Source of the DNA: a virus
Taxonomy: Duplodnaviria; Caudoviricetes
DNA length: 64,000 nucleotides
Reading direction: 5' to 3' (one strand)
IMG/VR virus record: IMGVR_UViG_3300010429_001449
Part shown: one piece after another, positions 13,153 to 52,410 of the stretch
Position numbering within the stretch: the stretch's first letter is position 1
Layout of the letters: the number at the start of each line of letters is the position of its first letter
Position numbers and translations under genes: made by a program
Notes under the pieces: generated by a model
What the model saw: the letters and a program-made list of their open reading frames with translations, nothing else
Told to the model about the DNA's origin: nothing
The model's database searches: none

Positions 13153-13292
13153 GCGGCTGGCCGGGATTCAGGGGACGAGCAATTCAGTTCTCGCCACGGG
13201 GTTTTGTACGTTCATTCATTAAACCCGCTGCTCCCTGTCCCAACGCGCTTCTAAGCTTTCGCTCGCCGCTACTTGCTCCACGCTGCAGCCGC
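13153..13292 (-). ncRNA. Putative structured RNA heading the Y-RNA operon
   Basis: Terminal GCGGCTG/CAGCCGC stem; no ORF; ends resemble the element at 52307-52410. Confidence 0.5.
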
Positions 13293-34388: not shown

Positions 34389-34463
34389 TGGAGCGGGCAG
34401 CGGGACTCGAACCCGCAATGAACAGCTTGGAAGGCTGTAGCCCTACCATTGGGCTATGCCCGC
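34389..34463 (-). tRNA. tRNA-Gly(TCC)
   Basis: GCGGGCA/TGCCCGC acceptor, loop CT-TCC-AA, CCA. Confidence 0.95.
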
Positions 34464-34475
34464 GTTTTTGTTGCA

Positions 34476-34957
34476 GACGCCGCCGAGTCAGGACGGCGTC
34501 CGATCTTTTCCCGCACATGGCGGGTAAGTCTTGGGGGCCGGAACCGCCGAGACGGTCCTGCCGACTCCACCACCCTGTCAAACATCTCGGCGGACAGGGA
34601 CGCCTGAGTAACGAGAGGCCGGTCAGTTCGAGACTGCATGCCGGTCGACTGACGCCTGACTGTGAGACGACTCTCGTGGCCTAGGCGCGAAAGTCGGCTC
34701 TGTGTCCCTTCCGCTGTCGCAGTGCCGTTGGGCGCTGTGGCAAACGCGGCCTCTCAAGAGCAAGGGCAATCTCTGCAGAGACGACCCTGCGCCCGTTCGC
34801 TTGTCGCTACTAGGGGGAGCAGATAGTTACACCGAGCCGGGCCGAGGCTGCGGGGGCAGCAGCGCCCGGCCTACAGGCTCAGTAAGCGTCGGCGAACCGA
34901 CGCGAAATGGGGAGAAAAGCGGCTGGCACATCCCCGCTTGCGCGGAGAAAAGTGATC
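34476..34957 (-). ncRNA. Putative large structured ncRNA (about 480 nt, unassigned)
   Basis: No credible ORF; long-range helix 34502-14/34942-57, many nested helices, a possible pseudoknot, TTCG and GCAA tetraloops on the minus strand. Confidence 0.6.
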
Positions 34958-35034
34958 GGGACGGCTGAGGAAGGCATAACCTCGCCGTCAATGGAGCGTC
35001 GGCCCATGACGTGTTGTGTGGCAGCCGTCCCGAT
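34955..35034 (-). ncRNA. Putative 80-nt structured RNA
   Basis: 13-bp terminal stem ATCGGGACGGCTG/CAGCCGTCCCGAT. Confidence 0.4.
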
Positions 35035-35039
35035 GTGAA

Positions 35040-35416
35040 TGGTGGACGCGGGGGGCATTGCAACCCCCGTCCAGAAATGGTTCCTTCTGCGCTTGCTACA
35101 TGTTTAGCTGGCCTATTGTGTCTCGCGCTAAGAACCCCGGCCAGCGGGGTTTCCTTCGCGCCATCTCTAAAGCTTTAGCCCTTACGCCCAAGAGAACTGA
35201 CGTAAGACCGATCCCGCTAGTTGACGCCTGCAAACAGACGCGGGCTTCCGCAAGCAGACGTGTTGCCTCTTGTTAGGCAGCAAGCCCAACCGCTTCGCGG
35301 CTGGGGAATTGCACGATGTTATCGGCACTTGTGTTTTGTCAGGCGTTTTACGAGATTCCTGGCGATCTCGACATGCAACACAGACATCTTCCATCCTGTC
35401 GATTCTTGTCGCGCCC
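35040..35416 (-). ncRNA. ssrA: tmRNA
   Basis: 5' GGGCGCG..TCGAC and 3' GAC-T arm-CGCGTCC-A-CCA with G3:U70; tag ORF 35326-35273 encodes ADNIVQFPSREAVGLAA. Confidence 0.93.
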
Positions 35417-35424
35417 GTAGAAAA

Positions 35425-35499
35425 TGGTAGCGGGAGCCGGGGTCGAACCGGCGTGAACGGCTTATGAGGCCGTTGAGTATCCACCTACTCTATCCCGCA
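35425..35499 (-). tRNA. tRNA-Met(CAT), initiator-like 1:72 mismatch
   Basis: TGCGGGA/TCCCGCT acceptor, loop CT-CAT-AA, CCA. Confidence 0.88.
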
Positions 35500-35509
35500 T
35501 TAGGGTCTA

Positions 35510-35585
35510 TGGTGGAGACGAGGGGAATTGAACCCCCTACCTCCTGCGTGCAAAACAGGCGCTCTCCCAAATGAGCTACGTCCCC
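35510..35585 (-). tRNA. tRNA-Ala(TGC)
   Basis: G3:U70, loop TT-TGC-AC, CCA. Confidence 0.95.
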
Positions 35586-35638: not shown

Positions 35639-35666
35639 AGTATAACGGAGAGGAACAGAATGTCAA
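35639..35666 (-). promoter_or_regulatory. Promoter of the tRNA/tmRNA operon
   Basis: TTGACA-N16-TATACT. Confidence 0.85.
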
Positions 35667-37602: not shown

Positions 37603-37884
37603 TTTGCTTACAAAGACCGGCGCGGCAACGCCGGTCTCCGTGGAAAGGATTCCAATGTCCAAACAGACGGCGGCGCGTTACAAAGCCACACGCCGTGGGC
37701 AAAACGTCATGCGCCGCCTCGAAAGACGGCGCAGGTACTCCTTCCACACGTGGTGGATGAGCAAAGAGTTATAACGCACAGCAACCGTGTTGATCAAGCA
37801 CGGCGGCACGTACTCTTGTGCGCCGGAACTACCTCTCGACATTCGACTGCCGCCGGTACGCGCTTGTCGAGAGACGCTGTTGAC

Positions 37885-38050: not shown

Positions 38051-38225
38051 TGGTCGGACGAGGAAGGATTCTACCTTCATCTTCCGGGCGCAGAGCTATG
38101 GGTACGCTCGGCTGTTCTAGTTGAACTACTACTGAGACACCTCCGAGAGTCGGTATTGAGACGCCTGCCCAAAGCAGGCATCTCAACCATTTACTCTACC
38201 GGGCTACGTCTCATTGGGTCGTCCG
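38051..38225 (-). ncRNA. tRNA-like RNA (175 nt) with a roughly 90-nt hairpin insert before the D arm
   Basis: Perfect CGGACGA/TCGTCCG acceptor plus ACCA; GTTC/GAAC D stem; GAAGG/CCTTC T stem. Confidence 0.62.
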
Positions 38226-42673: not shown

Positions 42674-44545
42674 TCAATAAAGATCGAACACGCCTTCTTG
42701 AACCAGGCGGCGCAGGCGGCTGACACGCTCGTCGATCTCGTTCCCATAAAACCCGTGCCGCAACAGAGTACGACGGAACGCGCTGACGTTCACGTTTTTC
42801 AGCTTCTCGTACACATCGTCAGCAATAGGTTGCTGGTGCAGGGGATAACCGAAACTTGTTGCTCGGAACGTCCCGTAGTACATACCGCCATTGTCGATAG
42901 CAACGACTCGTCCCTTTTCCGTCAACATAATATTGCCGCCGTGTCGATCCGCGTTCAACATAATCGCATCCAGCGCTAATATTCTGTGCAGCCAACCACT
43001 ATCTTCGCTATCCAAAAACGCATTCGTGCTGACCGCTGGCATCGCATCAGCGATATCAAAGTTATCGGGGAACCCAAGACGATTAACGTCCGTCTGCAAA
43101 GAGACGCCTTGGAATGACCCATGCTTATGCGCAAATTCGCCGCCCAAATTGGCGGTAGGAGGCACTATATTGAAGCCCAGGACTTGATCGATGTCGTAAG
43201 CAGCCTCCTCAGCGTATGCCGTTCCGTGCTGCGCATTGAGTTTGCACAGCGCTCGGCTACCGTCTGCTGTAGTGAGCCAGAACGTAGTGTTTATACCGCC
43301 GCTTTCGCTTAATTCCTCTCGATCACCGGGTTCCGCCTCCGCGAGCGCGGCTTCGAGAATAGCCTTGTTAGCGGGTGATCCCAGCGGAATGTCGTCGGGA
43401 GTGCTTGCGCTAATGCGCCCAATGGTCTCTCGCGTTTGTGCCGCGCTCTCCAGTTGCTGCTCGGTTGCAAGAGTTAAGTCGTCTCCTTCAGAGGCGATCT
43501 TGTGATCGAGCACAGCGGCAAGAGCAGTAACGCCCAAGAGGACTAATGATTTCCCACGGCGCAACCCTCTAATGAACATCTCAGTCTCTTCTGCGATGAT
43601 CTGGGAATCTCCGTCAGGAGCGTACTTGGCAAGCCATCCACTCACGTCCTTCTTGTAGCTTTCAACCTCAGAGTCGTCGGCAATAAGCGCGTCAGTCCGC
43701 TCCTCCACAGCGAACATACCAAACAACTCCTTCACAACAGCCGCCTCGATACGATACTCATGCGCTATATTCTGTATGCGCCCCGCCTGCGCGGAACCGC
43801 CGGTCTTGGCAAGATTAATCGCCCATAGCGTAGAATAAGGCGTTCCCTTATAGGTCAACCCACCAACCACAGCGCTCGCTATCTGCTCGTAGATTTGAAT
43901 GTCAGCCGGACCTACATAACCTTGAGTATAGTTGTACGACGCCTTGACCGAGGCTACCGAAATACCATTCTGAAGACACTCTTCGTTGTATTCATCAGCC
44001 GCTTGCTTTAGGGCATCGCGCTCAGCGGCAGGAACAGCGCCGGTCTTGTCCAACGCTGCCGAGAAGAACTCTGAAATAATCTCATCCTTACTAAGATTAC
44101 CGGCTCTAACGCGATCAAGAAGATTTTGGTAAGCTGGGGTGTGATAAAGCTCGTCCTGAGACCAGTGAAACACGCGCCCTATTCCCATGCCGTCGTAGAC
44201 ACTATCTAACACCGCATGAACACCGGCAGTATCGCCGGGGCGCAATGCACCAAGGGCGTTAATCTTGTCAGACGCAGCCTTGTAAACGCTCTCCCCTAAA
44301 GCGCTTGATTCCACGCCGTAACCTTGATCGCGCCTCCGGGATATCTCGCGTTCCTTGGTGGAGGACTTCCTTTCTTCGCTCCTGTGCTGTGACGCCTCCG
44401 CTCCTTGCGCAGTACCTGCTCTGCCCGCCGACGTAAACTCACCCGTAGCAGGATCGTGACAACGATTCCCCACTCTGCCGGAGCCGCGACTGCACTCGCT
44501 CTGCTCCTGCTTCTCCAGCGCGTACTTGATCCAATCGTAGATCAC
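42674..44545 (-). CDS. Large protein with C-terminal PI3/PI4-kinase-like (HipA-related fold) domain
   Basis: GGIN.T...CK...E.AAY.ID..LG...VPPT...GS.Q...D....NADRHGGN...AIDNG. Confidence 0.8.
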   Translation of the reverse strand: MIYDWIKYALEKQEQSECSRGSGRVGNRCHDPATGEFTSAGRAGTAQGAEASQHRSEERKSSTKEREISRRRDQGYGVESSALGESVYKAASDKINALGALRPGDTAGVHAVLDSVYDGMGIGRVFHWSQDELYHTPAYQNLLDRVRAGNLSKDEIISEFFSAALDKTGAVPAAERDALKQAADEYNEECLQNGISVASVKASYNYTQGYVGPADIQIYEQIASAVVGGLTYKGTPYSTLWAINLAKTGGSAQAGRIQNIAHEYRIEAAVVKELFGMFAVEERTDALIADDSEVESYKKDVSGWLAKYAPDGDSQIIAEETEMFIRGLRRGKSLVLLGVTALAAVLDHKIASEGDDLTLATEQQLESAAQTRETIGRISASTPDDIPLGSPANKAILEAALAEAEPGDREELSESGGINTTFWLTTADGSRALCKLNAQHGTAYAEEAAYDIDQVLGFNIVPPTANLGGEFAHKHGSFQGVSLQTDVNRLGFPDNFDIADAMPAVSTNAFLDSEDSGWLHRILALDAIMLNADRHGGNIMLTEKGRVVAIDNGGMYYGTFRATSFGYPLHQQPIADDVYEKLKNVNVSAFRRTLLRHGFYGNEIDERVSRLRRLVQEGVFDLY

Positions 44546-52306: not shown

Positions 52307-52410
52307 AAGGCGGCTGGCCGGGCTTCCTACTGAGTCGTAACGCCCGGCGGAACTGCATCTCAGTCTGCAACACACGTTCCGTTTGCTATTCGCAGGGACG
52401 CAGCCGCCTT
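52307..52410 (-). ncRNA. Putative structured RNA or attenuator
   Basis: AAGGCGGCTG/CAGCCGCCTT terminal stem then a T run; ends match 13153-13292. Confidence 0.4.

Follow-up and report, generated by a model that had tools for sequence, protein, structure and literature searches.

What is encoded by the stretch of about 480 nt that separates the tmRNA and tRNA-Gly genes of an uncultured giant phage, in which no protein gene is apparent? Bacterial and phage RNAs this large are rare, and several of them have proved to act as ribozymes or to form RNA-only cages (PMC5737381; PMC12286853). The phage, which has been seen in anaerobic-digester and sludge samples, is represented by a 269-kb IMG/VR record that is ~77% complete, and the window analysed here, a 64,000-nt stretch of DNA, corresponds to positions 193158-257157 of this record. 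Its genome carries a large RNA tool kit, comprising 45 tRNA genes, a tmRNA, a CCA-adding enzyme, a Ro60-type RNA-binding protein, Y-like RNAs and tRNA-shaped RNAs, and its closest cultured phage as judged by the CCA-adding enzyme is the Acidobacteria phage Tunturi_5 (41%). A sequence-only reading of the window had described positions 34476-34957 as a highly structured RNA with pseudoknot-like crossing helices, which might form a new class.

The best reading of the locus is that its 448-nt core is a discrete, non-coding folded RNA gene lying outside all Rfam families. The existence of such a gene is fairly probable owing to the strong end-to-end stem, the high GC content, the operon context and the presence of matching contigs in RNA libraries. 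The minus-strand fold ensemble of the gap between tmRNA and tRNA-Gly resolves three units, namely an 80-nt hairpin, the core and an 11-bp hairpin (Table 1). The ends of the core pair at -28.7 kcal/mol, a value reached by 0.05% of random 22-mer pairs (p ~5e-4), and the resulting 18-bp stem, which contains bulges and a G-U pair, begins 2 nt past one flanking hairpin and stops 2 nt short of the other. The ~480-nt unit proposed earlier, closed by a helix between 34502-34514 and 34942-34957, was correct in that a folded unit and a closing helix are present, but this helix is imperfect, the true stem is longer (18 bp in three segments, 34952-34933/34524-34505) and the best unit is 34952-34505, which leaves the hairpin at 34474-34502 outside the stem.

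Table 1. Features of the minus-strand operon and of the candidate RNA within it, in window coordinates and in order of transcription.
Feature	Position	Strand	Support or remark
Sigma-70-type promoter (TTGACA / TATACT), 11/12	35639..35666	-	Predicted driver of operon
tRNA-Ala(TGC)	35510..35585	-	Rfam and ARAGORN
tRNA-Met(CAT)	35425..35499	-	Rfam and ARAGORN
tmRNA	35040..35416	-	Rfam RF00023, 138 bits
80-nt hairpin RNA, separate from the core, with a closing stem of 13 perfect bp; occupies the gap up to tmRNA	34955..35034	-	Fold ensemble
Candidate ~450-nt non-coding RNA (core, 448 nt)	34505..34952	-	Fold ensemble, closing stem, codon model
Closing stem, 5' arm (18 bp = 6+7+5)	34933..34952	-	Pair probability 0.83-0.99
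7-bp hairpin, UUCG loop	34886..34903	-	Probability 0.99
21-bp interrupted hairpin with G-U pairs; best-defined inner domain	34830..34884	-	Probability 0.94-1.0
10-bp interrupted hairpin	34763..34788	-	Probability 0.91-0.98
Subdomain with perfect 9-bp closing helix (34755-34747/34621-34613)	34613..34755	-	Probability 0.59
Candidate pseudoknot region (34698-34690/34568-34560, 34599-34593/34579-34573, 34593-34585/34552-34544)	34544..34698	-	Helices present, chance frequency
Closing stem, 3' arm	34505..34524	-	Pairs with 34952-34933
11-bp GC-rich hairpin between core and tRNA-Gly	34474..34502	-	Fold ensemble
tRNA-Gly(TCC)	34389..34463	-	Rfam and ARAGORN

The element is embedded in a minus-strand operon in which the promoter at 35666 is followed by tRNA-Ala, tRNA-Met, the tmRNA, the element and tRNA-Gly, and its placement between the last two genes, both on the minus strand, is as originally proposed. 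This promoter belongs to a set of ~30 near-identical ones in the phage, of which 29 are on the minus strand. No terminator-like site was found on the minus strand between tmRNA and tRNA-Gly, and no promoter for the element was found on the plus strand. The tmRNA itself, with an unusual T-loop, was missed by ARAGORN despite its Rfam score, and its tag resembles that of the sister phage described below, with ~17-18 residues and LAA at the end.

The element is non-coding. ORFs of 43-98 codons overlap the region, as would be expected of a small protein gene, but the ten overlapping ORFs score between -19 and +5 bits in a codon model trained on the phage, compared with +13 to +37 bits for six small real genes. 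These ORFs are without phage-like codon use, no good ribosome-binding site was found upstream of any of the ten, and three independent pipelines (ENA, JGI and Logan, each annotating this DNA) place no gene in the element. Codon model and gene callers agree with the earlier judgement that no credible ORF is present, and the probability of a small protein gene is close to negligible. The GC content of the element, 64.5% compared with 55.5% genome-wide, ranks among the highest 0.5% of windows once the first 6 kb are set aside, and the other spacers of the operon are short and U-rich. The word CGTCTC, with a similar 5' flank, occurs three times in the element (34544-34556, 34664-34677 and 34778-34790) at a spacing of 114-115 nt, and no wider repeat was found around the three occurrences.

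The whole 576-nt gap folds with z-scores of -4.6 on the minus strand and -4.5 on the plus strand, a figure that includes both flanking hairpins. For the core alone on the minus strand a z-score of -3.4 was obtained (0/100 shuffles being as stable), or -2.6 in a second run, and values of -2.5 to -2.7 are reached by three of the 23 coding controls. The 5' domain of the core, consisting of the UUCG, 21-bp and 10-bp hairpins, is well defined (z -4.0); in pseudoknot-free folding the 3' half gives -0.8 on the minus strand versus -2.9 on the plus strand, and the ensemble diversity of the core fold is high. The description of the element as highly structured applies to the closing stem and the 5' domain, which are beyond chance, but not to the 3' domain in pseudoknot-free folding.

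The five helices listed in the sequence-only reading are all present, four of them perfect and the closing one imperfect. Perfect helices of at least 7 bp number nine, compared with 7.6 +/- 2.8 in shuffles, and the two perfect helices of at least 9 bp are matched by 31 of 300 shuffles; with so ordinary a count, the crossing helices are no evidence of pseudoknots. Each crossing helix, when forced alone, costs 0-4 kcal/mol, two of them have base 34593 in common, and for three of the four inner helices the pair probability in the pseudoknot-free ensemble is <=0.01. The helix 34611-34617/34671-34677 does exist but overlaps the stronger 9-bp helix 34755-34747/34621-34613, which had been missed. Similarly, of the two tetraloops noticed earlier, UUCG is part of the best fold but the GCAA hairpin has probability 0 and is incompatible with the closing stem. 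Since the helices occur at chance frequency, several are mutually exclusive and the GCAA loop conflicts with the closing stem, the pseudoknots are only possible, and the pseudoknot-like crossing proposed for this RNA loses its force although the helices themselves are present. An ornate RNA of a new class is likewise not established by one sequence with zero covariation and crossing helices at chance level. An unlikely reading that we retain is that the element founds a new class of large phage RNA with pseudoknots, being either a self-assembling cage or an unrecognised ribozyme with precursors of tRNA or tmRNA as substrates; the crossing helices of its 3' domain would then be tertiary contacts.

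A plus-strand reading was examined because the plus-strand version of the core is purine-richer and gains 11 kcal/mol in stability. Antisense folding is also the better one for 29% of the tRNAs of the phage itself, and for 13% the difference per base is as large. In favour of the minus strand, which is likely to be the transcribed one, are the UUCG loop, the closing stem, the G-U pairs and the 5' domain. Contigs of identical sequence occur in two activated-sludge metatranscriptomes, covering 34537-34725 (depth 19) and 34505-34792 (depth 12.5) in the 3' part of the element, together with tmRNA contigs (depths 20 and 52) and short coding pieces (4-6); among the RNA contigs listed none covers 34793-35065, and the contigs show presence only. 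As they carry no information on strand, ends or level and may be DNA-derived, they are compatible with transcription, nothing more. The coincidence of one contig end with the end of the closing stem at 34505 was not counted, because the contig from the second study ends at 34537. A freshwater strain contig (34443-34604) carries C34547T and a 1-nt deletion at 34531, differences near the contig ends, including at the partner base 34590, being unlisted, so that this contig counts neither towards the strand nor towards covariation.

Comparison with known families by Rfam cmscan gave no match for the region, at the gathering score or at E <= 10, and the covariance models agree with the earlier failure to recognize GOLLD or ROOL by eye. 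The GOLLD model (RF02032), including its conserved 3' domain, has no match in the region at E <= 10 or in the whole genome. The ROOL (RF03087) and OLE (RF01071) models have none in the region at E <= 10, and their genome searches, run without a positive control, were also empty. Models and profiles of RNase P RNA (RF00010 and RF00011) match neither region nor genome. The group I intron model (RF00028) found no match in region or genome, and the P3/P7 core, the P4-P6 domain, the G-binding site and an interrupted host gene are all missing from the region; indeed, the flanking tmRNA and tRNA are whole and only 48 nt are present at the would-be P4-P6. No match to group II intron domain V/VI (RF00029) was found in region or genome, nor, by Rfam and reading by eye, the catalytic core consensus of HDV-like, hammerhead or other small ribozymes. 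Comparison by eye and by pattern with the Y-like and tRNA-shaped RNAs of the phage detected neither Y scaffold words nor an acceptor-plus-T-arm shell in the core, and the 80-nt hairpin resembles the tRNA-shaped RNAs only by its acceptor-like stem.

GOLLD and ROOL occupy such positions near phage tRNAs and form RNA-only assemblies (PMC5737381; PMC12286853). Like ROOL, the core is large, folded, non-coding and located near tRNAs in a phage, but it measures ~450 nt, compared with a ROOL average of 581, and has no model match; the six junctions and three pseudoknots of ROOL, which cryo-EM shows to form a cage, rest on covariation, whereas the core is known from a single sequence (PMC5737381; PMC12286853). 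GOLLD shares the phage tRNA-island setting and the probable co-transcription with tRNAs (PMC12286853), but is often longer than 800 nt and possesses a conserved 3' domain, to which the core gives no match even at E <= 10. The likeness to GOLLD and ROOL is thus one of setting only, and the core is no member of either family. The RNAs reported by Fremin et al. (2023) are likewise intergenic structured RNAs of IMG/VR phages, often unassigned, but by their description they span 29-151 nt, and three or more matching regions were required for each (PMC10690425); because of its length and of this requirement, a whole 450-nt singleton could not be in that set.

A search of cultured phages and plasmids with blastn returned chance matches only. 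No second copy of the element was found in the phage genome, where it is single-copy, nor any 14-nt antisense match to the rest of that genome. Pattern scans of viral and genome contigs for the pseudoknot arms, the RNase P-like geometry and the motifs shared with the sister phage gave chance-level matches without further similarity, and with single-sequence covariance models neither the genome nor Tunturi_5 nor four other phage records yielded a paralogue or homologue. No close relative of the phage was found in IMG/VR or GTDB. As the homologue search suggested with the original description yielded no relative, covariation is absent. The relatives that could be reached through neighbouring proteins are one sister phage (L140/L141/L143), the CCA enzyme of which is 73% identical, and a single short contig (L142). 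The sister phage preserves the order promoter, tRNA-Ala, tRNA-Met and tmRNA, with the promoter at the same place, and has a row of folded non-coding units (80-200 nt) after the tmRNA. The core has no significant match in the sister contig (local score 28, versus 29 +/- 4 for shuffles); this contig, L141, stops ~950 nt past the tmRNA and before any tRNA-Gly, so that the core could lie beyond it and its absence is limited to the contig. The closing stem of the 80-nt hairpin is common to the 207-nt first unit (L141:10799-11005), located at the same place after the sister tmRNA, and the two form the best match in 20 kb (12.2 bits, E 0.03). The sister tmRNA is surrounded by seven or more folded non-coding units, which form a dense row (L141:10245-11746); several of them have the acceptor-like shell of the tRNA-shaped family, and one is a tRNA with a 68-nt anticodon-loop insertion.

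These observations bear on several other accounts of the locus. The gap might contain no single RNA at all but a spacer, or small independent hairpins in a row, within a tRNA polycistron, the long-range pairing being accidental, and the chance level of the inner helices, the high ensemble diversity, the restriction of a clear excess over shuffles to the 5' domain and the row of units found here in the sister phage all agree with this. That an end-to-end stem of such low chance probability should fit exactly between the flanking hairpins, and that 450 nt should be so GC-rich among short U-rich spacers, argues against it, and we consider it rather doubtful. Somewhat less credible is a larger unit, 35033-34488 (546 nt), which would be one RNA or a tandem duplication, an expanded form of the 207-nt sister element with a conserved shell and variable cargo, as in the tRNA-shaped RNAs of the phage. 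A 10-bp outer stem (35033-35024/34497-34488) resembling the closing stem of the sister is possible, a model of the 3' domain matches the syntenic sister element weakly (9.5 bits, E 0.24) and global alignment gives a z-score of ~2-3; however, ~40 alignments were tried behind this value, the fold with the outer stem is 9.5 kcal/mol worse, the reciprocal model finds the 80-nt hairpin only and the shared motifs retrieve chance matches only among viral and genome contigs. The same segment contributes to a 9/10 direct repeat between 34497-34488, in the 11-bp hairpin, and 34965-34956, in the 3' arm of the 80-nt hairpin, which could be read as the 10-nt flanks of a MITE-like non-autonomous mobile or fold-back insertion with imperfect terminal inverted repeats. 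The paired ends and the absence of the element from this place in the sister phage, within its contig, would suit an insertion, but the single copy in the genome, the lack of matches in phages or plasmids and the bulges and G-U pair of the ends, which are RNA-stem-like rather than DNA-repeat-like, make it quite improbable.

On the plus strand, the element could be imagined as a highly divergent RNase P-like ribozyme transcribed against the operon. Like type A RNase P RNA (RF00010), it has a similar size, paired ends and a tRNA-related setting, and a few words appear in the correct order (GAAAGTC at 34689, GAGCAAG at 34758 and AGATAG at 34821), alongside pairings like those of P5, P15 and P2 and a P4-like helix of 6 bp that surrounds a bulged U; when this arrangement was used as a hand-set test, 0/20000 shuffles passed, and the plus strand is the purine-richer and better folding one. 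Nevertheless, the test was devised after the sequence had been seen, and weight matrices built on 99 genuine RNase P RNAs score the element at 14.5 bits, compared with 82-105 for genuine ones, a background score equalled by 51 of 1500 shuffles (3.4%) and 69 of 586 genome windows (12%). The words are antisense to the operon, CR-V lacks the conserved purines, P4 is two short of the full 8 bp (with no such P4 on the minus strand) and just 55 nt are present at the would-be specificity domain, which is missing. No nhmmer profile or Rfam match, no plus-strand promoter and only chance matches in a viral-contig scan for the geometry were obtained. The idea was dropped on the strength of the unbiased weight-matrix score and the empty profile HMM search, and is very improbable.

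Taken as a whole, the locus is tentatively best explained by an operon-borne stable RNA that may act as a scaffold or decoy. Positions 34952-34505 would be the gene for one stable, folded, non-catalytic minus-strand RNA of ~450 nt, predicted to be co-transcribed with tRNA-Ala, tRNA-Met, tmRNA, the 80-nt hairpin and tRNA-Gly under the promoter at 35666. As bacterial tRNA operons work, maturation of the tmRNA and tRNA-Gly would set free the RNA between them, which would gain stability from a long terminal stem. From the way in which bacterial tRNA polycistrons are processed, we infer expression as a discrete RNA released by the host enzymes that mature its neighbours, with RNase P cutting before tRNA-Gly and endonucleases cutting in the pyrimidine-rich linkers; the paired ends would then shield the RNA from exonucleases. 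As part of the large RNA tool kit of the phage, it may serve during infection as an abundant scaffold or decoy of the GOLLD/ROOL type, binding host RNA-handling proteins or its own copies. Given a discrete RNA gene, such a role is nearly as likely as not, and it is the likeliest one for an element that lacks both a catalytic core and a tRNA shell and for which the genome offers no antisense target. The RNA is probably an orphan large phage RNA, new in sequence and of a kind already known. As a singleton without covariation the element is a lead and not a discovery; if real, it is a compact, GC-rich candidate that would be easy to transcribe and image, from a phage rich in RNA tools.

Other elements of the phage genome were also noted. 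An unannotated non-coding element of ~270 nt on the minus strand, between tRNA-Ser(CGA) and tRNA-Pro(TGG) at 37610-37880, is kept in the sister phage (L141:8086-8350), where invariant blocks reach 31 nt and some of the changes in stems are two-sided; it has no Rfam or cultured-phage match, and the case for a real RNA family is stronger for this element than for the 34952-34505 core. A tRNA-like gene with a large insertion (38090-38215, minus strand), called by neither ARAGORN nor Rfam, directly precedes a Y-like RNA and tRNA-Ser. The anticodon-less tRNA-shaped family has additional copies at 52310-52407 and 13153-13292 of the window and at 188215-188335 of the genome. Adjoining the CCA-adding enzyme, a 623-aa protein (42674-44545) shows a weak match to the PI3/PI4-kinase family and is 62% identical in the sister phage.
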